A stretch of DNA of 64,000 nt from a virus. Made by a program: the position numbers and the translations under genes. Every line of letters starts with the position of its first letter. The first letter of the stretch is position 1. The stretch spans positions 15,639 through 79,638 of the IMG/VR virus record IMGVR_UViG_3300010160_000035. One strand, given 5' to 3'. Of this stretch, positions 15,336-62,998 are shown one piece after another. A model generated the notes under the pieces. The model saw only the letters and a program-made list of their open reading frames with translations, was not told the origin of the DNA and did not search any database.

Positions 15336-15710
15336 TTAAAAGTCTAATGTTATTTGTCGTGGTGGTGGTGGCATTTGATTACCATTTTTTAGATGTGCAA
15401 TATTCCACGTGCCTGGATGGTCAGAATTAGATAGTATATCTATTTCTTTCTGCAAATGCTGTTGTTTTTGCATTCTGTTAAACAACATAGCCTTCTTTTT
15501 GTGTTGGTAATATTTATCCATCACAATCATTGGCATGTTATTCTGATACTTTACAGTATATTCTAATGAAAAGTATTTTCTACCTTTCCAATTAGAGTAA
15601 ACTAATACACCATCATGCATACCTTCTGGTAAAGAAGTTGCATATGTCATTCTTACTTGTACACTATCATTAAAATAGAATACTTTACAGTTTTTTGGTA
15701 ATGTTACCAT
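15336..15710 (-). CDS. Hypothetical early protein
   Basis: 124 aa ORF. Confidence 0.55.
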   Translation of the reverse strand: MVTLPKNCKVFYFNDSVQVRMTYATSLPEGMHDGVLVYSNWKGRKYFSLEYTVKYQNNMPMIVMDKYYQHKKKAMLFNRMQKQQHLQKEIDILSNSDHPGTWNIAHLKNGNQMPPPPRQITLDF

Positions 15711-28820: not shown

Positions 28821-30332
28821 ATGCAATTATTTCAACTCCAAAAATACGCAGCCAAAGACTATAATGGTCTAGTAACTGCAAATAACTTGGGAGCTTTATA
28901 CATGAAGCGACCACAGCTTGTAACTAACACCATTCACCAGATTTTCAGAACTAATTTGAAGAATGCGATGTTTGACTTCCTTAATCAATTTCCAGTTGTG
29001 GAAGTTGAAGAAAATAACTACTATGAGTGGATGCTCCAAGGTCAACATGATAAAAATATTCCTTTGTTAGAAGCATATGATGCTACTGGAACTTCTGCTG
29101 CTTCAGTAGGTGAACTAGGTGCAGGAGTTGCTGCTTTCTATGTAGTATTTGGTGAAGAGTATTTTGAGCCAGATAACATCTTAAAAGGTAACAAAGCAGA
29201 ATACTTACTTCGTGTAATCTCTGTTAAACCTAAAGGTACTAACTATGAGTATGAAGTAGAACTTTTGACATCAGATCCAACACTTTCTGTTCCTGCAGAA
29301 GAACTTGAAGCTGGTCAGCGTTGGGCTAAGTTTTTCAACGTAGCACCATCTACACTTTCTAGTAGAGGTCAGAAGCCTAATTTTACTTCACCATTCAGAA
29401 TGCGTAACAGAATTACTATGCAGCGTTTTGAGTATGAAGTTCCTGGTAACATGATTAATGAAGGTAAAAACTACCCATTAGAGTTCTCTTTTCCTGGACT
29501 TGATGGTAAGCAAGAAAAAGTTTGGATTAACTACCTTGATATGGTAGCTATGTACCAAGCTGAAGTTGCTAATGTAGTTATGCACTTTTATGGTCTACAC
29601 AACTTTACAGAAAAAGATTTGTTCTTGAACAAAGACGCTTCTGGTAAATATCCATTGGAATCAGGTGCTGGTTTATTTGAGCAAATTGCACCATCTAACA
29701 TTCACTATTACTCAACTCTTGACTTGGACTTCTTAACTGAAGTATTCTTGGATCTATCTATTGGTAGAATTGAAATGGGTAACAGAGTTGTTACTTTGTG
29801 TACAGGTGAATATGGTATTCGTGATTTTCACAGAGCTGTACTTGCTAAAGGTGGTACTGAATTATTGATGTCTACTACTAACAGTGGTCCAGGACGTAGT
29901 AATGATACTTCTATCCACAAAGAAAATGGTGGAAAACTTACAGGTATTCCTAAGCCACTTTCTGCTGGTTTCCAGTTCACTAAGTATTACTCAATCAATG
30001 GTATTACATTTGAATTAATGTACTGTCCAATGTTTGATGATAAAGTTCTTTTCCCTGAAACTCACCCAGAAGGTGGAACTACTGAATCTCGTAGAATGAT
30101 TGCTATGGATTTTGGTGGTGAATCAGGAATTAAGAGAGTATCTGTAAAAGGTCAACCATCTGTATTCCGTTATATCCCAGGTATGCGTGATCCATTCACA
30201 CCTGCAGGAAAAGGTTCTCCTTCAATGGCAGTATCTAGATCTGATGGTTATGAAATTCACAGAATGATGTGGGGTGGAATGATGATTACTGATCCAACAA
30301 AAGTTGTTGACTTCCGTTACAACTTAGTTTAA
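28821..30332 (+). CDS. Major capsid protein
   Basis: 503 aa, crAss-like synteny, followed by a strong terminator. Confidence 0.85.
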   Translation: MQLFQLQKYAAKDYNGLVTANNLGALYMKRPQLVTNTIHQIFRTNLKNAMFDFLNQFPVVEVEENNYYEWMLQGQHDKNIPLLEAYDATGTSAASVGELGAGVAAFYVVFGEEYFEPDNILKGNKAEYLLRVISVKPKGTNYEYEVELLTSDPTLSVPAEELEAGQRWAKFFNVAPSTLSSRGQKPNFTSPFRMRNRITMQRFEYEVPGNMINEGKNYPLEFSFPGLDGKQEKVWINYLDMVAMYQAEVANVVMHFYGLHNFTEKDLFLNKDASGKYPLESGAGLFEQIAPSNIHYYSTLDLDFLTEVFLDLSIGRIEMGNRVVTLCTGEYGIRDFHRAVLAKGGTELLMSTTNSGPGRSNDTSIHKENGGKLTGIPKPLSAGFQFTKYYSINGITFELMYCPMFDDKVLFPETHPEGGTTESRRMIAMDFGGESGIKRVSVKGQPSVFRYIPGMRDPFTPAGKGSPSMAVSRSDGYEIHRMMWGGMMITDPTKVVDFRYNLV

Positions 30333-50039: not shown

Positions 50040-53000
50040 ATGCCAGCTAGTAAAAATACATGGAATAAGGGGCTTAATTCAGATTTTTCAAAACTTAAAA
50101 GCCAACAAGACAGTTACTTAGATGCTAAGAATATCAGAGTAATGACAGATGAGGGTTCATCTACTTTTGCTATAGAGAATATTAAAGGAAATGAATTTAG
50201 TTTTAATATACCACCTGTTGAAGCTACATATACTATTACAATACCTGAAGGATTTTTAGGTACAATGTATGTTGATTTACAAAGAGGTGTTTACTTAGAG
50301 AGTCTCCAAATTGATAACATAGAAAATAAATCATATGAGTTTATTACTGAAGAACTAAATGCTAAATTACAAACAACTAATTTTCCTGGTAAAGAATACA
50401 CAAGATTTTATTTTAATTCAAAAGGCATTGTACTATATGATTTTTTACCAAATTCTTCAACATTATCTAGTATTGTTTTAACTGTATATAATGCATTATC
50501 TGATTTAAGAACTGGTAGAACAGCTACACATACTATACTTGGATGGGGATATTATAATAATACAATTGTATTAATTACTTGCCCTTCAAATAGTAATAGT
50601 GAAACTCCTGAAGATGAAGAAGGTTTTATATGGGCAGCTACTTATGATAATGCAACAAATACTATACAAGTTGCTGACATTGATGGTGATTATTTAAACC
50701 CTAATACTACATTAAGATATGCAGGTAAACTAAATTTATCAAGACAATATGCTATCTACAAACATTTAAAATGTAGATATGAAAATAACTATATTGCAAG
50801 AGTAGTATGGACAGATGGTTATAATAATTTAAGAACTTGCAATGTTCTTGATCCACAAATATGGGCAACACCACCAGAATTATTCTCTTATATACCTGTA
50901 CATGCACCACAGAAACCTGTTATTACTCCAATAACTGGAGGTACATTACCAACAGGTAAATATCAATACTTTTACCAACTATCTTCTAATCAAGGAGCTA
51001 CATCTACATTCTCTCCTATAAGTAACTTAATATTTGCTTATCCTGGTGACTCAATTAATTATGCTACACCAGGCAATAACCCAGGAACAAATTCTCAAAA
51101 ATCAATGCAGGTTTATATACAAAACCTAGATACTAATTATGATACTATTAGATGTGGTTATATAGTATATCAAATTACTGATGTACCAGAAGCTTTTTTC
51201 TTTGATGAAAGAGCTATACCTGATACTGGTAATTTAACTATAGTGCATAGTGGTAATGAAAATGATATACCTATTGATTCAGTAAATATTGCTAATCTTA
51301 ATAGAACTCCAGAAGTATTTAAAACTATTGATGTAGTTAGAAATAGATTATTTGCAGCTAATGCTAAAACTACTAATTTTGATTTAACAAATGAGTTTGA
51401 TGCTAGAGCTTATAGATTTGATTCTACAGGTATAGCTAGATTATATAATATAGATGATACTTATTTTAACCCATCTTTATTAATAGACATTAGTTTAAAT
51501 CAAATGTTTATTGAAAATCCTATTCCTATATCTCCAATAGACTATACATTAATACCTGATACATTTGATTGCATTAATCCTTTTAATCAAGAAAATAATG
51601 CTTATAATCCATTTTCAAATAATGATTGGTATAATACTGCACAATATAAATATCAAGATGCTAATGCAACTATAATTGGTGGTAAAGGATTAAACATTTC
51701 TTACCAGTTTGTAACTAAAGAGATGACAGCTAAAATAGCTAGGTTTGATACTGCTAGTAAATATATACAACCTGATTTTAATTATGCAAATGAATATACA
51801 TATGAATTTTCTGATACATATGCATATCCAGGTGGTAGAGGTTTAACAATGGACAGTTTGAAAAATCCAATAATTGAAACATTATTTACAGGGTATTCAA
51901 GAGGTGAGGTTTACAGATTTGGTATTGTATTTTATGATAACTATGGTTATCCATCTTATCCACTATGGATAGGTGATATTAAGTTTCCATTTGCTTATGA
52001 GCAAGATGATATAGGAGATAGCTTTGGTCTTACTAAATTAAATGATGCTGGTGTACCATATACTCAAAAAACATTTGTAGGTATACCTGACTATACACAA
52101 GTTGATGATATCGATGAAGAAAGTTCTTTTGATATGTTACAGGTTGGATTTTATCTTGCAACAAAACTAGTAGGGCCTAATGGATTTGTACATACATTAG
52201 CTGATTTTACTCTTGGAGTAGGTGAAGGTAATCCTGAAAATTATCAATCAGATTTTAATAATTTACCATATAGTCAAAGATATGGATTATATGTTATGTT
52301 AGATCCTTTATTTCCTCAAGCTATATCATTTATTACTGATGATAATGGACCATACTCTGGATTTCTTCCATCTGTCTGGGCAGGAAAATCTATACAAATA
52401 ACTAAACAACTTTTAGGTGCTGAATATGTATCTATACTATTTACTTTCCCTACTTTTTTTCCAAGTGGGAGTGGTAGTTCTAACCCTGTAATAGTTAAAC
52501 AATTAGGTATTACATTTTCTTTAGATACATCAGGTGCTCAGTTTCAAGCTATTAAAAATAAAATATCAGGATACTCTTATGTAAGATTAAAAAGAGAACA
52601 AGCTGATAGTACTAGATTAGGTACTGGAGTACTTCAATCTTCATATGCTAGTGGAGATGATAAAAATAGATATATACTAACGTCATATGAATGGGATACA
52701 GCGCAAAGTGGTCCTAAATGGGGATTTGATTTAGGTCCTGGTAATGAAAATGGTGAGCAAGTTAGATTAGGATTACAAACATATTACACTCCTAGTATAG
52801 TAGGAAATTCTTTACCTGTATTTTCTAATGGAGATTATCTTAGATTTATAGGTAGAACTAATGATTATGGCTATGTTGTACAATACTCTGCAGAAATAAC
52901 AACTCCTGATTTTGGTACAAATTATGCATATTATGTAGCATCAAATGATTTTACATATAGTTATGATGATAGTACTTACACTCATTGGATGTTAAATGTG

Positions 53001-54827
53001 CAACAAGCACAATCAACTAATTCTTTTTTACCTACTAATAATAAATTTCTAATTAAATCAAGAGCATCTGTTCCTTATTCAACTAGTGGAAATGATGCTA
53101 CTATAGATAGTTTAGTTTTTAGAAATATGGCTAATGCTAATATTGATGATGCTCAAGCTGGTAATTTTTCTGAATGGGGTGCACAATGCTTAGCAATTAC
53201 ATTTGATGCTGCTATTAGTAACTTTCCAGATACTACTGCTATCTTTAGACCTACTAATGTTAAATTGCCTATATATTTAGTTGCTTATGAAAGATATTTA
53301 CCAGAACAATATAGAGGGTGGACTAGAGCAGATAGATATAATAATGAATACATACTTACAAATCACTTTCAACCAATAGTTGGTGCTGGTAATTTATTTA
53401 GTGATGTATATGGTGGAGATACATGGGTTAATTATTTTGATTGGCAAAAGACTAATATAAATTTTACAGATAGTGTTGGAGGTAGTGGTTATGGAACTGG
53501 TGGAGAACCAGGTAGAGGTGTAGCAATATTCTTTCCTGCTGAATCTACATTTAATACAGATTTAAATGTTTCAGCACAACGTGCTGCTGTAAGACAAAAT
53601 ACAGATTCTATATTTCAAAGTAATTATCAATTTAATGCTGCTTATTCACAACAGAATACAACTAATGTATTTGTATCAAAAGGTTATCTACAATCTAATG
53701 TTATAGATGAACCACACACTATATACCCATCAGAACCTAAATTAGATGGAGAAGGTAATGACTCTTGGAGAACACTATTAGTTAATAATGCATTATCAGT
53801 TAACGGTAACTACGGTGAAATCAATAGAGTAATACAATTTAAAGATAGATTATTTTATTATCAAAATGATGGTGTAGGTATAGCATCAGTTGATGAGAGA
53901 GTACTTGCTAATGAAGGTGATACTACACAAACTCAGTTAGGTACAGGTTCAGTATTACAAAGATTTGATTATATATCTACAGAAACAGGATGTAAACATT
54001 CTTTTGCTGTAGAGTCTACAGGCTCATCTCTTTATCATTATGATTCTTTTATTAATAAATTATTTAAATACAGTGTAGGTAAAACTAAAGATGAAATATC
54101 AGGTATGAATCCTTTAACGGATATTAAAGGATTATCTGGATTCTTTAGAACTGCATTTATTGGTAGTAGTATTAAATCAGAAGATAAAATATTAAGAACA
54201 GGAGATAGAGTAGGTATTGTATCTTCATTTAATTCAGAGTACAATACTGTGTATTTTACATTCTTTGACCAACCTAATCTTATAAAATATACTATATCTT
54301 ATAATGAGTTATTAGATTCTTTTGAATCATTCTATGATTTCTTTCCATCTATGTATCTTAATATGAGAAAAAGATTTTTATCTTTATCTACAGAAAGTTC
54401 ATTTTCTAAAGTGTATACACATAATGTAGGCACTAGAAATATTTTCTATGGTGCAGTTTATCCGTCAACAGTTACATTTAGAGTTAATGAAAACTCTGAC
54501 TTTGTTAAAACATTTGATAACTTTCAACTTAATACAGAAGTTATATTAAATAACTTGCAATTAGCAGAAACAGTTTCTTCATTAGCAATTACTAATGACT
54601 ATCAAATTTTTACAGACAAAAATGTTAACTTTGTACAAAAGATAAGAAGCTGGAGATTAGCTATTCCAAGAGATGAAACTAATCTTGCATTGACTATTAA
54701 ACCTAGAATATCGGATAAATATATAGATGTTAAATTTACACATAATCCATTAGGTCTTGATAAGACATTTAGATTGCATGATGTAATAACAGAATATTCA
54801 ATGAGAAGTAAAATTGTACCTAAATAA
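50040..54827 (+). CDS. Tail stabilisation/muzzle protein (P22 gp10-like)
   Basis: 1595 aa; NTWNKGLNSD..YLDAKNIR, YSRGEVYRFGIVF, GGDT, DSWR, YGEI, TISYNE..FESFYDF. Confidence 0.8.
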   Translation: MPASKNTWNKGLNSDFSKLKSQQDSYLDAKNIRVMTDEGSSTFAIENIKGNEFSFNIPPVEATYTITIPEGFLGTMYVDLQRGVYLESLQIDNIENKSYEFITEELNAKLQTTNFPGKEYTRFYFNSKGIVLYDFLPNSSTLSSIVLTVYNALSDLRTGRTATHTILGWGYYNNTIVLITCPSNSNSETPEDEEGFIWAATYDNATNTIQVADIDGDYLNPNTTLRYAGKLNLSRQYAIYKHLKCRYENNYIARVVWTDGYNNLRTCNVLDPQIWATPPELFSYIPVHAPQKPVITPITGGTLPTGKYQYFYQLSSNQGATSTFSPISNLIFAYPGDSINYATPGNNPGTNSQKSMQVYIQNLDTNYDTIRCGYIVYQITDVPEAFFFDERAIPDTGNLTIVHSGNENDIPIDSVNIANLNRTPEVFKTIDVVRNRLFAANAKTTNFDLTNEFDARAYRFDSTGIARLYNIDDTYFNPSLLIDISLNQMFIENPIPISPIDYTLIPDTFDCINPFNQENNAYNPFSNNDWYNTAQYKYQDANATIIGGKGLNISYQFVTKEMTAKIARFDTASKYIQPDFNYANEYTYEFSDTYAYPGGRGLTMDSLKNPIIETLFTGYSRGEVYRFGIVFYDNYGYPSYPLWIGDIKFPFAYEQDDIGDSFGLTKLNDAGVPYTQKTFVGIPDYTQVDDIDEESSFDMLQVGFYLATKLVGPNGFVHTLADFTLGVGEGNPENYQSDFNNLPYSQRYGLYVMLDPLFPQAISFITDDNGPYSGFLPSVWAGKSIQITKQLLGAEYVSILFTFPTFFPSGSGSSNPVIVKQLGITFSLDTSGAQFQAIKNKISGYSYVRLKREQADSTRLGTGVLQSSYASGDDKNRYILTSYEWDTAQSGPKWGFDLGPGNENGEQVRLGLQTYYTPSIVGNSLPVFSNGDYLRFIGRTNDYGYVVQYSAEITTPDFGTNYAYYVASNDFTYSYDDSTYTHWMLNVQQAQSTNSFLPTNNKFLIKSRASVPYSTSGNDATIDSLVFRNMANANIDDAQAGNFSEWGAQCLAITFDAAISNFPDTTAIFRPTNVKLPIYLVAYERYLPEQYRGWTRADRYNNEYILTNHFQPIVGAGNLFSDVYGGDTWVNYFDWQKTNINFTDSVGGSGYGTGGEPGRGVAIFFPAESTFNTDLNVSAQRAAVRQNTDSIFQSNYQFNAAYSQQNTTNVFVSKGYLQSNVIDEPHTIYPSEPKLDGEGNDSWRTLLVNNALSVNGNYGEINRVIQFKDRLFYYQNDGVGIASVDERVLANEGDTTQTQLGTGSVLQRFDYISTETGCKHSFAVESTGSSLYHYDSFINKLFKYSVGKTKDEISGMNPLTDIKGLSGFFRTAFIGSSIKSEDKILRTGDRVGIVSSFNSEYNTVYFTFFDQPNLIKYTISYNELLDSFESFYDFFPSMYLNMRKRFLSLSTESSFSKVYTHNVGTRNIFYGAVYPSTVTFRVNENSDFVKTFDNFQLNTEVILNNLQLAETVSSLAITNDYQIFTDKNVNFVQKIRSWRLAIPRDETNLALTIKPRISDKYIDVKFTHNPLGLDKTFRLHDVITEYSMRSKIVPK

Positions 54828-54829
54828 AT

Positions 54830-57800
54830 ATGGCAGAGAAAAATTCACTTTGGAAAAATATCAGAGAAAAAGCTAAGCAAAACAGAGCATCTGGTGCTAC
54901 ACCTAAGAAGCCTACTACAGAAATGCTTAGGCAAGAAAGAAAAATTAGAGCACAGAAAGCTGATGGTGGACCAGTAAAAGAAAACCCTTTATATAAATCT
55001 AATGAAGATTATGTGTATAATCAATGGGTACAATCTATGCCTGAAAACCTTAGACAAGAATCTACAGGTTATAATATGAGAGGTGCTTGGGAAGGTGGTC
55101 TAGAACCTGAAATGTTTTACAGAGATGAGCAAGGAAACTTTAGAACTGCTCATGAACCACATCCATTTAATCCTACATATGAACCACATTTAGGAAGTAG
55201 AAATCCTAACACTGGAGAAATATTAAAATCACCAGAACACCATACTTATGATATGGGTATTGAAGGTGATATTAGAGCAGGCTATACTCCAAGAGTAGAT
55301 GCTAAAACAGGTAAGATGTATTCAACTAATTCTAGTGATCCTACAACAGCAGGACCATTTAAAGGTTATGCAGTAGGAGGTCCAACAAAAAAAGATGGTT
55401 ATTTAAGTACTCCTGTAGAACAAGTAAGCACAGGTTCATTATATAATCCAATTAGCAATAGAATTCATTCAGACCCTAATGATCCTGCAGAAGCTTTACC
55501 TCATGAATATTACCATGCTTGGCAACATGAACAAGGATTAGATAGAATACCAGAATTATATGATGGTCCATTAAGACAACCACAAACTCCTTGGTTAGAT
55601 GAATTAACTGCTGATTATTATAATAGAAGGTCAGCTGAAGAAAATCAAATTAATAATGAATTTAGAGGTCAAAACCCTAGTTTTAATTTTGTACCTAATG
55701 ATGTAATGTATGATAAATATACAAATGATGAAATGTATAATAGACCATACACTATGGAAGGTGAAGCTAGAGCAACAGAATCTCCTGAAGGTAGAGCATG
55801 GTTAAAAAATAATGGTATACTACCTCAAGGTGTTGAGAATATGTATAAAGCTAAAGGTGGGCCTGTAGGTGAAGATGAACTTTCTTTTTTAGAAAGACCA
55901 TTAAGTATGCCTATGGAAGGTTATGAGTGGGAGAGTAGACCAGAAAATCATGTAAAAGAACCTGTAAAAAAAACTAACTATAGTAACCCAAAATCAAAAG
56001 AGCAAGGTAAATCTAGTAAAGATTGGAAAGATGATTTATATTTAACTGAACAACAATTACAAAATCAAACTCTTAGAAAAAAAGGTACTCCATATAACTT
56101 ACCTAAAACTTCAGATCAATTACAAGCTGTAGGTGAACATTTTTTTGATCCTAAAAGAGTTAACTCTGTAGGTGAAAATCTACTTGAAATTATTGACCCT
56201 ACAGGAATATCATCTTGGGATGATGCATCTACTTCTTATAACTCTAAAAACCCAACTAGTTTTGAATCTATAGCAAACTACGGTTCTGTTATTCCTGTAT
56301 TAGGTAAAATACCACAGGCAGCTAAATCAATACTTCGTGGATGGAATGCTATTAATGGAGCTTGGGATATTAATAAAGATAATTTTGCTGAAGGAGGTTA
56401 TTATCCTACACAAGGTCCACCAAAAGCATTATTTAAAGGTTATGCTGAAGGTGGTTATATGTACCCAGGTGGTGGATATACTTTACCTAGTGGATTAGAT
56501 CCTACTAAACCTACTAGACAAGATAGTTTAATGTTATTTAATAATGCTTTAGAAAAGATTAAATTTTATAAAGGTAATCCTGATTATCAACGACTTGCTG
56601 TAGATAAAAATCTTAGGGACCCTAATAATACTATACCGCATACTAATTTTAAAGATCCTATTCAAAGAAAAAAACTTATTAAAGAAGGAAATTCACAACC
56701 AAATAAAAAAGTAACTCAAAAACATATAGACGAGGCTATTAAAAATGCCTTATCAGTTAAGCCTGTAACACCTTTAGAAGCTTCAAAATTAAAAGCACAA
56801 CTTAATAAAAATAGATTTGGTAAAATACCTAATACTAATTTAACTTCTTTTGGAGATGTTTTATTTAGTGGTTCTGATGATATTTATAATCCACTTGCTC
56901 CTCCTATATATTTACATCCTAATATAACACCTCAAGGTTCTGAAAGTTATGAGTCTTATAGATGGGGAGACAGTACAGATATACCATATTATGACCCAAT
57001 AGCTGTTGCTCCTTTTGATAAACTAACTACAGAACAAAAAGAAAAAAGAGTTGAAAAATATGGTGACGTAGGAGTACCTCAATCATACATGAATACTAGA
57101 AAAAAGAATACAACAAATACATTAACTAGTACTACTACATTAAAGAAAGCTGGTAACTCTACTACAATTATACCAAATACTCAACCAAAGCCTATACAGA
57201 TAGATAGATTAGAACCACTTAGACTTACAAATCTACAAACACAAGAAACACCATTAAAATTAAATTTATCTAATACAGAATACAAAGAACCATTTAAACC
57301 ATCAAGAGTGGTATTAAGAGAAATGGGTAATATACGTAGGTATAATAATAATGAGCCTTATAAAGCTACTCATGAAGTATATGTAGATGATGGTAATCAA
57401 TGGAGACCTGTTTCTAATGCAGAGCGTGAAAAATATATACAACAATATCCTGGCTCAGACCAACCTTTAGGATGGACAGGTAAAAAAGAACATGCTACTG
57501 GTGGTTACTTAAACCAATACCAACAGTATTCAACTGGTAGTTTTGTAGGTGAAGATGATAAATTACCTAAATTACCTTCTAATAGTTATGTAAATAAAGA
57601 AGGTGTTATAAATGGTCCAGTACTAACAGAACAGGGTTGGCAAGTACCAAAAACAAAAGACAATACTCCTATTGTTAATTTAAGAGAAGTTGAAATTATA
57701 TCTACACCAACTGGTGAATCAAGATTTAATAGTACACCTAATCCTTATTCTCCTGTAACAGGAATAGAGTTTTTAAATAGTGGGTTTAATCCAATTAATT

Positions 57801-60800
57801 GGTTTTTACCAAATACTGAAAAACAAGTACAGCCAATAGATCCTAAAACAGGAATGCCTTTTCCAGCAAGTGGTAAAGCAGATTATGACTATGGTACTGA
57901 AATGGCTTTAGCAGCACCATTAGCACAAGGAGTAAAATCTATAAGTAAAGGTGTTAATAAAGCGTATAATACAGTAGCAACTGGTAATTCAGCATTACCT
58001 ATTGCTTGGAAAAGTCCAGCAGTTGGACTTAGCCAAGAAATTAGTGATGATATGTTTAAATCACTTATAAATAGTGGTAAACTTTCAGATGCTGAAAGAG
58101 CTGTTGTAATTGATTATCAATATAATAGCAGACCTTTTACTGGAAGATCTGGTACAGTTAATGTAGAAAAAAGAAATCAAATTAACGATATAATAAAAAA
58201 ATACACTATAAATGCTGATAATACAGCAATAGCAACAAGAAAATTTAACCCTAAAAATAATTCAATAGGGGCAACTATAGAAAATGGTACATTAAATTTT
58301 GGTGATAGACCTACTTCTTTTTCAGCAGGTGTTGGTAAATCAGGTTATGGTTCAGGTTCTGTAGATAGAATAGTTATACCTAATAGAAGTTTAAAAAACC
58401 TTAATAAACAATTTACAGCTAATTCTTATGATCCAATTTCAGAAGAAGCTCTTAAAGGATTAGAAATTGATCCTCAATTTATTAATCATAATTATAATAA
58501 TTCTGCTATTGGTACTTTAAGAGATGAAAGAGAACTTGTAGGAACAGGGTTAAATTTAAAACAAGTAGGTAAAGTTAAAAATGATATTGGTGGTTATGAT
58601 TGGATAGTACAACATAAAAAACAAGCTGAAGGAGGATACACTATGAAAAACAATCAATCTTGGAGAAACTATCTTCAATATGCACAAGGTGGTAAAACTA
58701 ATAATGATAAAAATACATTATTAAATTCAATTATTTCTAATAATCTCGGTAGTAATGTTACAGATGATAAAGGAGGTAGAGGTTATGACTATTGGATTAA
58801 TAAATTACAAAATGAAGACAACTTAACTTTAGAAGAAGCACAACATGTTTTTGGTGCTCTTGAAAATCCTATGGCTAACAGAAATCCATTATATAACTCA
58901 ATACCATTTAGAGAAGAAGATTATGATTCACCTCCTGATGCTAGTCAGTTTGATTTATACACAGGCAATCAAGATAGAGCTAATATTAGAAGATATAGAC
59001 CTGACCAAAATCTTCAACCTAAAAAACCTTTTGGTTATGGTGAACCTGAATATGCACAAGGTGGATATACTAATCCATATAATCAATATCAAGATGATCC
59101 TCATTATCAATACAAAGTAGGTGGTAAAACTTGGCAAGGTGTAGGTTCAACTGCTTGGAATGTTCTTTCAGGTACATTAAATACTGTTACTGGTGGTCTT
59201 ACAACAGGTATAATGGATATGGGAGAAGAAGGTTTACAAAAAATGGCTAATCCTAATTTTGATCCTAATAATCCTGAAGATGTAAAAGCAATGCGTCAAA
59301 TAGAAACAGCTGGTGGTGCTGGTGAAATTGCTGGTAGTTGGTTAGGATTAACTCTAAATCCTGCAAATGTAGGTAGTGCTGTTGCAGGAACTGGAAAAGG
59401 TGCTAATGATATAGTACAAGCATCTACAGCTTCTGATGATGCTAAACAATGGTCACAGGGAATATCTGGAGTTATGCAATTAGGGCATCAAATGAATGGT
59501 ATGAATTCAGCTAGTTCTACAGGCAGTACACCAGGCGGTAGTGCTCCAGGAGCAGGTGCGGGAGCAGGAGAAGGTGTTTCTAAATTTGGAGATATATTGA
59601 CTAACTTTTCAGGCTCTGATTTTGGTAAAGATGCTAAAAAAGCAATGCCTTATATTAACCAAGCAGCAGGTATGGCTAGTGGTAATAAAGGTTCATTATT
59701 AGAACAAGGAGTTGCTAGACAAGATTATTTAAATTCACCAGAATATTTAGCTTTAAAAAACCAAGGTGATATAACAGTTAATAATGGAATCACTTTTTCA
59801 CAAGGTGGAAACATAACAAATAATTCATTAAATTTGCGTAATACTATGAGATACAAAAGATTTGCCCAAGGTGGTACATTTGACCAATATGGAATAAATA
59901 TGATTCCAGATTCTGCAGGACTACACCATGAAAGTGCTTATGGTGGTGTACCTATTGGACCTAATGCTTTAGCTGAAGGTGGTGAGATTAAAATGGATAC
60001 TGGGGATGGTGGTCAATATATAGTATCAGACCAAGTTGATGGTGCTGAGTCTCAAAAAGATTTTACTTTTTCTAAAGGTGGTAAGTATAAAGAACTTAAT
60101 AGAACTTTAGCTGATGGTATGAAACAAGATTTGACTAAATATACCTTTGGCTCATTGGCTACTAGTGATAGAGTTAAAGGTGATTTAAGAAGACCTAATG
60201 ATTCTTACTCTCAAAGTACTATAGAACAAATCAAACAAAAGTGGCAAGAGAAAACAGAATATGCCAGACAACGTAGTCAGCAAGAGCAGGCTATTGCACA
60301 AGCAGAAGAGCAAAAAAGAATGGCAGAAGAACAGTACATAGCTGCTTATGGTGGTAGAATTAATCCTAAGAAATACCCAGGATTAAACTATGCTAAAGGT
60401 GGTATACATATTAAACCTGAAAACAGAGGTAAGTTTACTGCATCAGCAGAAGCTGCTGGACATACTGTTCAAGAACATGCTAGTGCTGTATTAAATAATC
60501 CTAATGCAACTCCTCTTCAAAAGAAGAGAGCTAACTTTGCAAGAAATGCTGCTAAATGGCATCATGCTGATGGTGGTTATGTTCATAATCAAATGACACA
60601 ACCTATGCTAGCAACAGGTGGTCCATTATATGGAGACCCTGCATCACCATATACTTATGCAATGGGTGGTATGTATGGTGACCCATATGCTAGAGGTGGT
60701 CAAATAGATTACACTAATGATATGTATAGTTCATATGCAGGTGGTGGTCCAATGGTTAGTAATGTGCCACAAGCATTTAATGGACCTTCTGCACAAAATA

Positions 60801-62998
60801 GAGGTGGTATGTATATTTATGCTGATGGTGGTATGATGCCACCAGAACAGCAAATGATGCAACAGCAACAAATGCAACAACAAGCACCACAAGAACAGAT
60901 GCAACAACAGAGTGGTGGTCAAGACCAAATGATGCAAATGGTTCAGCAAGTTGAACAAATGTTACAGCAGGGTGCAGAACCTCAACAAGTAATGCAACAA
61001 CTTGTACAGTCTGGAGTACCACAAGAACAAGCACAACAAGTTGTTCAAATGGCTATGCAAGATTTACAAAGTCAAATGCAACAACAACCTCAAGAACAAC
61101 CTATGCAACAAGGTGAGCAACCTATGCAAGGTCAAGAACAACAAATGCCTCCTCAACAAGGTATGGCTAGAGGTGGTAGATTACCTAAAGATATTTTAAG
61201 AGCAAGAGCAGAAGCTCATATGTCTCCAGAAAAAGCAGCTAATTATGTAAATAATTATGCTATGGGTGGTAAAATGTATTATAAAGGTGGTCTTAATAAT
61301 AACAATGACCGTGAACATCGTAGGAAAATGAGAACAGACCCTGTATACAGAGAAGCATATAATCGTAAAATGGAAAGCTATAATGCTGCAATGGGTAATA
61401 AAAGCCAAGACTTTATAGATAAAGATGCAAAACTTCAAGAAGAAAGTAGAAGAAATTTTACATACCTTAGTCCATATACTGATCAAAATGAATTACGTGA
61501 TGCTACTGATTATTCAAAACAATTAACAGCTAATCCAGTAGGCCCAATTGCAGGTCCAGTTAATATGTATAATCAATACACAAATCCATACTCTTTATCA
61601 GACTTTCAAGAAGAAAAACTTGCTCAAAATGAAAGTTTAATGAATAGGTCTTTAAATGTAAATGCTAATCAACCTAAAGCACAACCAGAAACTGTACCTA
61701 CATTAAATAGAATAGAACAAAATTATTTTGATACTAGTAATTCATATAATCCTAATCCTTCATTACCTAATAATGAATTAGGGTCAATGCCTTCAACAGC
61801 TCCAACTTCTCCATTTAAACCAGAAGCAATGCCATATGATGATGAAATAGATTATACTGAAATACCAAACACTACACCTGTTAAATTAACAGGGTGGAAT
61901 ATGCCTAACTCCACTGCTAAAATTCCAGGTCCTATAAGTCCAAATACAATAGGCCCTAATGGTCCTATTACAGAAGAACAAGCTATTGCTCAAGGTTGGG
62001 AACCAGAACAACTAACAACTAAAACTCCACCACCTACTAAAAATGGTTTATCTACTTCAGATTGGATGGATTTAGGTACTGGAGCTTTATCATTAGCTGG
62101 ACCTATTTCACAATTCTTTCAAAAGAAACCAAAACCATTTCAGTATAAAAAAGCAAGTGCTACAACACTAGATCCTACAACAGCTATTGTACTTGCTAAC
62201 CAAGCTTCAAGAGAAGCCCAAGCTACATCTGATTATAACATTAAACAAAATGCTCCTACATCAGGAAGTTATTTAGCTAACATAAGAGGCAATGCTTTAC
62301 AATTTGGTAAACAACGTGGATTAGGTGCAGCTGGTATTAGAAGTCAATATGATTTACAAAATGCAGGCATCTTAAATCAATTTGGACAATACAATACTGA
62401 TATTGAAAACAGAAATATTGATGCTATACAACAAGACCAAGCTAACTTTCAAGAACAAAGAACTAATGCTCTTTATAATGCAGGTGCTAATGTAGCAGGT
62501 ATGCGTAAAGATTATAAAGCTAATAAGATTAATGAAATAATTGCTAAAAATATTGGTACTAATAATTGGCAGTATGATGAAGCTACACAAACTATTAAAT
62601 ATAAGACACCTAGTGGTCAAACAGTTAGTATGCCAGTACAAGCTGTTACTGCAAATAATACTCAAACTACAACAACTGCACCAGCAGTAACACAGCCTAC
62701 TCAAGCAAATACTCAACCTGCTGCATCTGCTAATCCACCTGCTACAACTGTTGATAATTTTACAATGCCAAATGAATTACAAAAAGGTAATGAAACTAAA
62801 GCATTTCAAGATTTCTTAGATGCTGGTGATATTCCTTGGTATAAAGGAAGTAAACTAGGACGTGGTAAAGGTTATGGTACATTTGGACCTAATACTAGAG
62901 CAGCATATGCTAAGTATAAAGATGCGTATGCTGAAAAACAAAAAGAAACTGCAAGGTTAATGTATAATATACAAAATCCTAATAATCCAATAAAATAA
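54830..62998 (+). CDS. Giant multi-module putative virion cargo (ejection) protein with repeated AxGG motifs
   Basis: 2722 aa directly after the muzzle gene; HExxH, ART-like, Gly-rich TM-like, Q-rich and PG-binding modules. Confidence 0.75.
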   Translation: MAEKNSLWKNIREKAKQNRASGATPKKPTTEMLRQERKIRAQKADGGPVKENPLYKSNEDYVYNQWVQSMPENLRQESTGYNMRGAWEGGLEPEMFYRDEQGNFRTAHEPHPFNPTYEPHLGSRNPNTGEILKSPEHHTYDMGIEGDIRAGYTPRVDAKTGKMYSTNSSDPTTAGPFKGYAVGGPTKKDGYLSTPVEQVSTGSLYNPISNRIHSDPNDPAEALPHEYYHAWQHEQGLDRIPELYDGPLRQPQTPWLDELTADYYNRRSAEENQINNEFRGQNPSFNFVPNDVMYDKYTNDEMYNRPYTMEGEARATESPEGRAWLKNNGILPQGVENMYKAKGGPVGEDELSFLERPLSMPMEGYEWESRPENHVKEPVKKTNYSNPKSKEQGKSSKDWKDDLYLTEQQLQNQTLRKKGTPYNLPKTSDQLQAVGEHFFDPKRVNSVGENLLEIIDPTGISSWDDASTSYNSKNPTSFESIANYGSVIPVLGKIPQAAKSILRGWNAINGAWDINKDNFAEGGYYPTQGPPKALFKGYAEGGYMYPGGGYTLPSGLDPTKPTRQDSLMLFNNALEKIKFYKGNPDYQRLAVDKNLRDPNNTIPHTNFKDPIQRKKLIKEGNSQPNKKVTQKHIDEAIKNALSVKPVTPLEASKLKAQLNKNRFGKIPNTNLTSFGDVLFSGSDDIYNPLAPPIYLHPNITPQGSESYESYRWGDSTDIPYYDPIAVAPFDKLTTEQKEKRVEKYGDVGVPQSYMNTRKKNTTNTLTSTTTLKKAGNSTTIIPNTQPKPIQIDRLEPLRLTNLQTQETPLKLNLSNTEYKEPFKPSRVVLREMGNIRRYNNNEPYKATHEVYVDDGNQWRPVSNAEREKYIQQYPGSDQPLGWTGKKEHATGGYLNQYQQYSTGSFVGEDDKLPKLPSNSYVNKEGVINGPVLTEQGWQVPKTKDNTPIVNLREVEIISTPTGESRFNSTPNPYSPVTGIEFLNSGFNPINWFLPNTEKQVQPIDPKTGMPFPASGKADYDYGTEMALAAPLAQGVKSISKGVNKAYNTVATGNSALPIAWKSPAVGLSQEISDDMFKSLINSGKLSDAERAVVIDYQYNSRPFTGRSGTVNVEKRNQINDIIKKYTINADNTAIATRKFNPKNNSIGATIENGTLNFGDRPTSFSAGVGKSGYGSGSVDRIVIPNRSLKNLNKQFTANSYDPISEEALKGLEIDPQFINHNYNNSAIGTLRDERELVGTGLNLKQVGKVKNDIGGYDWIVQHKKQAEGGYTMKNNQSWRNYLQYAQGGKTNNDKNTLLNSIISNNLGSNVTDDKGGRGYDYWINKLQNEDNLTLEEAQHVFGALENPMANRNPLYNSIPFREEDYDSPPDASQFDLYTGNQDRANIRRYRPDQNLQPKKPFGYGEPEYAQGGYTNPYNQYQDDPHYQYKVGGKTWQGVGSTAWNVLSGTLNTVTGGLTTGIMDMGEEGLQKMANPNFDPNNPEDVKAMRQIETAGGAGEIAGSWLGLTLNPANVGSAVAGTGKGANDIVQASTASDDAKQWSQGISGVMQLGHQMNGMNSASSTGSTPGGSAPGAGAGAGEGVSKFGDILTNFSGSDFGKDAKKAMPYINQAAGMASGNKGSLLEQGVARQDYLNSPEYLALKNQGDITVNNGITFSQGGNITNNSLNLRNTMRYKRFAQGGTFDQYGINMIPDSAGLHHESAYGGVPIGPNALAEGGEIKMDTGDGGQYIVSDQVDGAESQKDFTFSKGGKYKELNRTLADGMKQDLTKYTFGSLATSDRVKGDLRRPNDSYSQSTIEQIKQKWQEKTEYARQRSQQEQAIAQAEEQKRMAEEQYIAAYGGRINPKKYPGLNYAKGGIHIKPENRGKFTASAEAAGHTVQEHASAVLNNPNATPLQKKRANFARNAAKWHHADGGYVHNQMTQPMLATGGPLYGDPASPYTYAMGGMYGDPYARGGQIDYTNDMYSSYAGGGPMVSNVPQAFNGPSAQNRGGMYIYADGGMMPPEQQMMQQQQMQQQAPQEQMQQQSGGQDQMMQMVQQVEQMLQQGAEPQQVMQQLVQSGVPQEQAQQVVQMAMQDLQSQMQQQPQEQPMQQGEQPMQGQEQQMPPQQGMARGGRLPKDILRARAEAHMSPEKAANYVNNYAMGGKMYYKGGLNNNNDREHRRKMRTDPVYREAYNRKMESYNAAMGNKSQDFIDKDAKLQEESRRNFTYLSPYTDQNELRDATDYSKQLTANPVGPIAGPVNMYNQYTNPYSLSDFQEEKLAQNESLMNRSLNVNANQPKAQPETVPTLNRIEQNYFDTSNSYNPNPSLPNNELGSMPSTAPTSPFKPEAMPYDDEIDYTEIPNTTPVKLTGWNMPNSTAKIPGPISPNTIGPNGPITEEQAIAQGWEPEQLTTKTPPPTKNGLSTSDWMDLGTGALSLAGPISQFFQKKPKPFQYKKASATTLDPTTAIVLANQASREAQATSDYNIKQNAPTSGSYLANIRGNALQFGKQRGLGAAGIRSQYDLQNAGILNQFGQYNTDIENRNIDAIQQDQANFQEQRTNALYNAGANVAGMRKDYKANKINEIIAKNIGTNNWQYDEATQTIKYKTPSGQTVSMPVQAVTANNTQTTTTAPAVTQPTQANTQPAASANPPATTVDNFTMPNELQKGNETKAFQDFLDAGDIPWYKGSKLGRGKGYGTFGPNTRAAYAKYKDAYAEKQKETARLMYNIQNPNNPIK

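Follow-up and report, generated by a model that had tools for sequence, protein, structure and literature searches.

The window analysed here is a stretch of 64,000 nucleotides (positions 15,639 to 79,638 of IMG/VR virus record IMGVR_UViG_3300010160_000035). It is part of the genome of a crAss-like phage, and the record from which it was taken is 79.6 kb long and approximately 86% complete. The plus strand of the window carries an open reading frame (ORF) of 2722 amino acids (aa) at 54830–62998, referred to as P0001, which is homologous to gp45 of ΦcrAss001, the cargo protein 1 of crassviruses. The ORF is located in the late structural gene block, and its start at 54830 lies 3 bases past the end of the muzzle protein gene at 54827. 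Within this ORF, at 57962–58615 on the plus strand (aa 1045–1262), there is a module with a predicted ADP-ribosyltransferase (ART) fold of the R-S-E type. The module, its relatives and the protein that carries it are described below, together with the function that can be proposed for them.

The bounds of the module were set by conservation, from AYNTVATG at the start (57962) to DWIVQH at the end (58615), and the coordinates of the features, all on the plus strand, were checked by translating the ORF. Conservation was counted in 101 full-length copies, which reach down to about 25% identity, while the family alignment, A1, comprises 27 members. The N-terminal helical sub-domain contains the helix LSDAERAVVIDY (58082–58117; helix 37–48 in the AlphaFold2 model), which is the “LTxxExxAxxxY” helix of such enzymes and whose Y46 is present in 101/101 copies. 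The arginine of the R-S-E triad, found in IATRKF, is encoded at 58238–58240 (R87 of the module, R1137 of the ORF; strand 85–89) and is likewise present in 101/101. It is followed by S-F-S in PTSFS, the “STS” motif, at 58316–58324 (S113-x-S115 of the module, S1163–S1165 of the ORF; strand 112–116), in which position 115 is a serine in 89 copies and a threonine in 12. A second invariant arginine (58367–58369; R130 of the module, R1180 of the ORF; 101/101) occurs 15 residues past the STS motif, and we take it to be a candidate for the phosphate-binding arginine of the phosphate-nicotinamide (PN) loop known from iota and C3 structures. The catalytic-type E-x-E, which is E-R-E in RDERELV, is encoded at 58526–58534 and stands at the end of the ADP-ribosylating turn-turn (ARTT) loop; both glutamates (E183/E185 of the module, E1233/E1235 of the ORF) are present in 101/101 copies. 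Towards its C-terminal end, the module has a family-specific beta-hairpin, GKVKNDIGGYD (58568–58600; strands 192–200 and 206–212 in the model), whose family pattern is GKVKNxxGGxD and in which K200 is a lysine in 100 copies and an arginine in one. To our knowledge, this hairpin has no counterpart among characterised ARTs. Altogether, 11 positions are identical in every copy, namely Y46, R87, S113, G117, R130, E183, E185, N201, G204, G205 and D207. Since none of the 101 copies departs from the R, S and E-x-E residues, these are under absolute constraint.

The original prediction, made from the letters of the window, had read LSDAERAVVIDY, INDIIKKY, IATRKF, PTSFS, RDERELV and QAEGG as the ordered parts of a VIP2/C3-type ART. 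Translation confirmed that all of these strings are in frame and in that order. The R, S and E-x-E residues of this reading are invariant in the 101 copies, lie on the expected strands of the model and, in a weak alignment, are in register with those of T4 ModB. The bounds then proposed, 58050–58636, were exact at the end, but the start was one base out of frame and fell inside the module. It had further been claimed that the module is closed by QAEGG (58622–58636), one of 22 A-x-G-G linker motifs in the ORF and the point at which a cassette indel relative to the closest homologue begins. This holds for the window ORF but is not a property of the module, as GG is found within 25 residues past it in 36/108 relatives, versus 18% of background windows.

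The fold of the module was predicted with AlphaFold2 from the alignment of 27 sequences. The model has a predicted local distance difference test score (pLDDT) of 86.9 and a predicted template modelling score (pTM) of 0.84, and the pLDDT of all five models ranged from 84 to 87. When it was compared with the PDB using Foldseek, the top 50 matches were all R-S-E ARTs, including CDTa, iota Ia, C3 enzymes, VIP2, ExoS/T, C3larvin and Tre1, with a best E-value of 2.5e-4. VIA-align, which is independent of Foldseek, scanned 48,161 representative chains and gave C3stau2 as its best match (Z 11.7, 158 residues aligned, root-mean-square deviation (rmsd) 3.3 Å), with CPILE-a (Z 11.4), Certhrax (Z 11.2), C2-I (Z 11.0) and VIP2 (Z 10.6) among the further matches. 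Of the 21 matches with Z ≥ 5, 20 were ARTs, and the remaining one was the ART-like domain 2 of anthrax lethal factor. Among the predicted viral structures of BFVD, the named matches were mostly phage ARTs, such as ModB-type, Alt-type (“RNA polymerase ADP-ribosylase”) and VIP2-like proteins and MuF/minor-capsid fusions. The model begins with four N-terminal helices, the second of which bears LSDAERAVVIDY, and the conserved residues occur where the R-S-E clade has them. The arginine is on the first core strand, S-x-S/T is on the next one, and E183-R-E185 is at the end of the ARTT loop, immediately ahead of strand 185–188. According to the model, the module has the ART fold of the R-S-E clade, a split beta-sheet core with an N-terminal helical sub-domain, and the VIP2/C3-type fold that had been foreseen from the motifs is supported by both structural comparisons. 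A model lacking any ART fold would have refuted the original prediction, and this outcome did not occur.

The best structural matches are the ARTs of C3-like and binary toxins (C3stau2, C3bot, VIP2, iota Ia/CPILE-a, C2-I, CDTa and Certhrax), which align with the module over 155–172 residues at Z 10.6–11.7 and an rmsd of 3.1–3.7 Å. The module and these toxins share the N-terminal four-helix sub-domain with its LTxxExxAxxxY-type helix, and in all of them the arginine is found on strand 1, the next core strand bears S-x-S/T, and E-x-E precedes strand 5. However, their sequence identity is only 9–18%, and there is no similarity at the level of hidden Markov models (HMMs). The module also differs in its shorter spacing between the arginine and the STS motif (26 residues), in a variable two-helix insert of about 45 residues between the STS motif and E-x-E, and in its own invariant C-terminal hairpin. 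In addition, it is internal to a phage virion-type protein that is probably packaged, whereas the C3 and binary toxins are secreted.

Relatives of the module were sought in an exhaustive HMMER scan of 1.84 billion representative proteins. The scan yielded 87 clusters at 50% identity, all within large multi-module proteins in which the position of the module varies. Across nine related viral loci, the ART module is the sole BLAST-detectable conserved part of the ORF. Because of this, the 87 clusters of relatives and the residues invariant in 101 copies, the motif set goes far beyond what chance would produce. By sequence, the family is so far restricted to phage cargo-type multi-module proteins. 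Neither megablast nor tblastn found a match to the module in 50,697 GenBank phage records, a collection expected to include the cultured crassviruses. In 185,579 species-representative bacterial and archaeal genomes, a search of limited sensitivity gave no confirmed copy: the module itself, used as the query, returned no relative, and the degenerate pattern GKVKNxxGGxD had 35 matches there, 0 of which were confirmed by the A1 profile. This is a weak hint that the family may be missing from cellular genomes.

A distant relationship to the ARTs of phage T4 was examined with hhalign. The family profile aligned weakly with an alignment of seven ModB members (E 0.0019, 128 columns, probability 14%), which was better than the weak result with T4 ModB alone; comparison with T4 Alt and ModA gave nothing, and the module had no Pfam match to PF26816. 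Within the weak ModB alignment, the motifs are nevertheless in register, with R87 opposite R73, S113-F-S115 opposite S99-F-T101 and E183-R-E185 opposite E171-Q-E173. The R73, S99-F-T101 and E171-x-E173 motif positions are invariant in the ModB alignment. R73 is catalytic, and its mutation abolishes the activity of ModB (PMC10468400).

The protein that carries the module had been labelled a cargo protein in the original prediction. This label is supported, as the ORF adjoins the muzzle gene and contains a probable, divergent crAss_CARG1 portal-binding domain at 59900–60298 on the plus strand (aa 1691–1823; PF25725, E 1.1e-3, 19.5 bits). The region is homologous (E 1e-17 to 2.7e-28, whole database) to parts of five proteins, each of which exceeds the PF25725 cut-off at exactly this position. 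When a profile of it (A3) was compared with the PDB, the best match was gp45 of ΦcrAss001 (residues 439–554 of chain M in 7qog; E 0.0079). From the sub-threshold PF25725 match, the homology to passing proteins and the profile match to gp45, the ORF can be regarded as a much enlarged homologue of cargo protein 1. In ΦcrAss001, gp45 is present in the virion, where its residues 439–554 form the portal-wing-bound domain inside the capsid and residues 214–245 line the tail barrel, and it has been modelled as being ejected from N- to C-terminus ahead of the DNA (PMC10172136). The position of the ORF behind the muzzle gene, together with its divergent CARG1 domain, makes virion packaging and ejection plausible, and we infer both for the window phage by analogy. 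In its gene position directly past the muzzle gene and in its putative, divergent portal-binding domain, the ORF resembles gp45. It differs in that gp45 has 842 aa and no reported enzymatic module, whereas here a mosaic payload of about 1690 residues, including the ART, stands ahead of CARG1. Moreover, gp45 has a predicted transmembrane helix, whereas no classical one is evident in the ORF (Kyte-Doolittle maximum 0.88 in a 19-residue window).

In the three proteins in which both domains can be located (P0001, P0003 and P0114), the ART is N-terminal to CARG1. In P0114, the ART at 251–495 directly precedes CARG1, which scores above the Pfam cut-off in this protein. Jackhmmer had seemed to place CARG1 after the ART in many relatives, and this result was rejected as an artefact of overlap with the ART end. 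Several stretches of the ORF around CARG1 have a distinctive composition. The N-terminal stretch of the CARG1 region (59885–60349) is strongly conserved as QYGINxIPxSAGLHHxxAYGGVPIGPxALAEGGE. Between the ART and CARG1, at 59069–59650 (aa ~1430–1600), there is a Gly/Ala-rich, mildly hydrophobic stretch that is conserved in relatives. Further downstream, at 60830–61130 (aa ~2001–2100), there is an extreme Gln/Met-rich tract of 100 residues, of which 44 are Gln and none is Lys or Arg.

The architecture of the ORF was compared with that of 36 relatives sharing the CARG1 core and of P0003, its closest relative. A conserved leader (aa 1–49), which ends in KADGG, is followed by a mosaic region (aa ~50–1407), a conserved core (aa ~1408–2118) and a C-terminal part. 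The leader and the core are conserved in nearly all relatives. The ART is absent from all 36 closest CARG1-core relatives, including those whose identity in that region reaches 95%. Other parts of the mosaic (aa 1–192, 180–355, 341–546, 560–900 and 898/919–1036) recur as cassettes at other positions in different relatives. The motif A-x-G-G occurs 22 times in the ORF, versus 1.6 times expected from shuffled sequences, with a maximum of 7 in 2000 shuffles, and 0 times inside the ART module. The cassette indels relative to P0003 begin and end at such motifs. Judged from these comparisons, the ART module is a swappable cassette.

The modules that accompany the family elsewhere are also diverse. 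In three relatives, a second ART of the H-Y-D/E type, ART-PolyVal (PF18760), lies about 80–130 residues past the R-S-E module (P0018, 575–725; P0023, 776–927; P0123, 905–1056). Other relatives carry SLT, amidase, glucosaminidase or YkuD modules. The first three of these are peptidoglycan hydrolase modules, a kind typically found in proteins that are ejected. A linker, FAEGGYYPTQGPPKALFKGYAEGG, at 56384–56467 (aa 519–546) recurs in many relatives at 57–96% identity, and in P0003 it is found directly after the ART module. Such a linker could serve as a recombination joint.

In this crassvirus lineage, cargo protein 1 may be a polymorphic effector carrier, in which the leader and the portal-binding core frame a payload of about 1350 residues made of enzyme-sized, A-x-G-G-linked cassettes that close relatives gain, lose and reorder. 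The ART would be one warhead among them, and in relatives a second ART of another clade or cell-wall hydrolases would be others. We put this forward tentatively, at somewhat less than even odds. If it is true, the protein would be a phage counterpart of the bacterial polymorphic toxins whose delivery route is the tail and the portal channel, and the A-x-G-G joints would be recombination points, cleavage points or both.

A function can be proposed for aa 1045–1262. With a probability of roughly 0.6, the module is a catalytically competent R-S-E mono-ADP-ribosyltransferase that is carried as a payload cassette of cargo protein 1, is injected and modifies arginines of the host. The modelled fold and the invariant catalytic set point in this direction, as do the occurrence of the family only in cargo-type proteins of phages and the carrier's homology to gp45. 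Among toxins of this type, E-x-E rather than Q-x-E goes with arginine transfer, as in iota and cholera toxins compared with C3. We therefore infer arginine specificity from the E-x-E of the module. Since a module with intact catalytic residues is found in a probably injected protein, the phage probably modifies host proteins at entry, as T4 does with Alt.

The course of such an infection can be outlined. Cargo protein 1 would be made late, alongside the structural genes, and its CARG1 domain, which is bound to the portal wing in ΦcrAss001, would bring it into the particle. It would be ejected N-terminus first, ahead of the DNA, and the ART would leave early because it is N-terminal to CARG1. 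In the cytoplasm, where nicotinamide adenine dinucleotide (NAD+) is available, the ART would refold and transfer ADP-ribose to arginines of one or more host proteins. The phage might benefit from this through host shut-off or through the disabling of a defence. The module might also be cut free at A-x-G-G.

Several observations weigh against this proposal. No Pfam ART family was found on the whole ORF, the module, ten sub-segments or the 27 A1 members (the module and the members at E ≤ 5). PHROGs gave only a 0.06 match, to a family of unknown function, and sequence searches of the PDB with the single module or with a profile returned no ART. A scan of the phage genome for PF03496 (ADPrib_exo_Tox) found nothing at E ≤ 10. 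The probability of the ModB alignment is only 14%, and hhalign showed no link to Alt or ModA. The fold alone is no proof of activity, because the model is matched equally by an ART-like fold that is inactive, namely domain 2 of anthrax lethal factor (Z 10.3 in VIA-align). The placement of the catalytic residues was taken only from the motif order and the secondary structure of the model. With regard to the carrier, the match to PF25725 (“Crassvirus cargo protein 1 domain”) spans positions 20–130 of 133 and is below the 27-bit cut-off. The AlphaFold2 model of the CARG1 region is poor (pLDDT 56), and a domain that becomes ordered only when bound to the portal might well fold poorly by itself. 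Finally, about 1690 residues precede CARG1 in the ORF, and the tail cargo space of ΦcrAss001 has been reported as 0.4 MDa. Twelve copies would far exceed this space, which requires either a different arrangement in the particle or processing of the protein.

The invariant residues and the fold also have to be considered in the light of other possible activities. It is unlikely that the main activity of this ART-fold enzyme is other than on protein arginine, for instance as an NAD+ glycohydrolase, which could deplete NAD+ or break down defence signals derived from it, or as a transferase that acts on another nucleophile. An NADase would be served equally well by the fold and the NAD-binding motifs, and in the absence of an acceptor, NAD+ is hydrolysed by R-S-E ARTs. 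However, E-x-E, whose first glutamate is invariant here, is the form that goes with arginine transfer in toxins that have been characterised. The nearest structures, moreover, are protein mono-ARTs without exception, and about 12 injected copies would be few for a bulk depletion of NAD+. Conflicts between phages and hosts that centre on NAD+ are nonetheless common (PMC9503650).

The time and place of action might differ from those proposed. It is distinctly unlikely that, rather than acting after injection into the next host, the enzyme is active at a late stage in the producing cell or modifies virion proteins of the phage itself. Such action would suit a gene in the late structural block, since enzyme and NAD+ would coexist in that cell; no Macro or ADP-ribosyl-glycohydrolase gene, as a possible antidote that could restrain the enzyme, is encoded in the available 79.6 kb, and packaging itself is only a prediction. 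On the other hand, the carrier is homologous to a protein that was seen inside virions and modelled as ejected (PMC10172136), and late action and action after injection are mutually compatible.

Nucleic acids as the substrate are a still weaker prospect. The enzyme might ADP-ribosylate DNA, RNA or tRNA, or might attach NAD-capped RNA to proteins in the manner of ModB, and either activity is very unlikely to be the main one. The weak profile link is indeed to ModB, which RNAylates proteins (PMC10468400), and DarT and tRNA 2′-phosphotransferase are among the weak fold matches (Z 2.3–3.3). However, the nucleic-acid-modifying ARTs DarT and Scabin reach Z ≤ 3.3 in VIA-align, compared with 10–12 for protein ARTs. 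Moreover, RNAylation by ModB is still an arginine-directed modification of proteins and would be a sub-case of the proposed activity. It is hardly credible that the module is a non-catalytic scaffold for packing, unfolding and refolding or target binding, which would be akin to the matching domain 2 of anthrax lethal factor (Z 10.3) and would agree with the failure of the sequence models of active ARTs to recognise it, since conservation of R, S, E-x-E and the second R in 101 copies to about 25% identity is not expected of a pseudo-enzyme.

The proposed injection of an arginine-specific ART can be compared with what is known of other phage systems. T4 Alt, which is packaged in the head, is the classic injected phage ART. 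The module resembles it, as a functional analogy, in being a phage ART that is probably carried in the particle, but its carrier is a tail-proximal cargo protein of a podovirus-like crassvirus and not an internal protein of the head. Head-packaged ARTs are an established theme in phages (PMC5512222, PMC9503650), and about 44% of phage ARTs occur in contexts that suggest head packaging (PMC9503650). The ORF also resembles the polyvalent proteins of phages and conjugative elements, as it is a large multi-module protein encoded beside virion genes, is predicted to be injected and contains an ART effector module. ARTs are the commonest protein-modifying domain of polyvalent proteins, and they are of the H-Y-D/E type (Tox-ART-HYD2), which was explicitly contrasted with the R-S-E clade (Iyer et al. 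2017, PMC5512222). The module, in contrast, is of the R-S-E type, and a scan of the window phage's genome found no PF18760. When the module was compared by hhalign with the ART-PolyVal (PF18760) regions of its relatives, the probability was 0.3%; as nothing was found, the module can be placed in a different clade. An identity as ART-PolyVal was rejected because of the R-S-E residues and the lack of similarity to PF18760.

A further parallel is offered by the MuF polymorphic toxins of temperate phages, in which a virion-associated carrier is combined with exchangeable toxin or enzyme modules, including ARTs (PMC5576092). The ORF resembles these in its probably virion-associated carrier and its exchangeable modules, and MuF/minor-capsid ART fusions were among the BFVD matches. 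Unlike in the MuF toxins, the module is internal and not C-terminal, and the phage is crAss-like; Pfam found neither a MuF domain nor any other domain above its cut-off in the ORF. An integration module was not seen in the window, in which no systematic search for one was made.

Injected phage ARTs are thus well established. What appears to be new is a family that is invisible to current sequence models, that belongs to the R-S-E clade and whose carrier is crassvirus cargo protein 1. Full-text literature searches found no report linking crAss-like phages or Crassvirales with an ADP-ribosyltransferase, and crAss phages were not mentioned in a survey of viral NAD+ systems. Few known phages are as abundant as the Crassvirales. 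Although cargo proteins have been observed inside their particles, we know of no enzymatic function or module that has been described for these proteins. The module would give cargo protein 1 a concrete and testable predicted biochemical activity, and together with its relatives it makes up an ART family that goes unrecognised by current sequence models. It also suggests that R-S-E ARTs, and not only those of the H-Y-D/E type, can be internal modules of multi-module phage proteins that are predicted to be injected. If a target were found, we would learn in what way a phage that supplies an RNA polymerase of its own nevertheless has to modify the host on entry. The interest would be higher if the cargo protein proved to be a polymorphic effector carrier.

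The genes around the ORF agree with a structural block. The muzzle protein gene directly upstream spans 50040–54827 on the plus strand (PF25731 crAss_MUZ, E 1.8e-141), and the major capsid protein gene is at 28821–30332 (PF23898, E 5e-105). No immunity gene is evident adjoining the ORF, and no Peptidase_C39 or C48, which are proteases that would fit cleavage after GG, is encoded in the available 79.6 kb. In 13 IMG/VR loci (L002–L014), which are distant crAss-like contigs, the ART-bearing ORF occurs in a conserved gene order: an ORF of about 223 aa, one of about 300–350 aa, a muzzle-size ORF of 1500–1800 aa, the ART-bearing ORF and then two to three ORFs of about 900–1300 aa. A tblastn search with the muzzle protein of the window against the related loci gave no match. 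In most of the 13 loci, the ART-bearing ORF is directly downstream of the ORF of 1500–1800 aa, and this upstream ORF has a muzzle Pfam match in two of the four loci tested.

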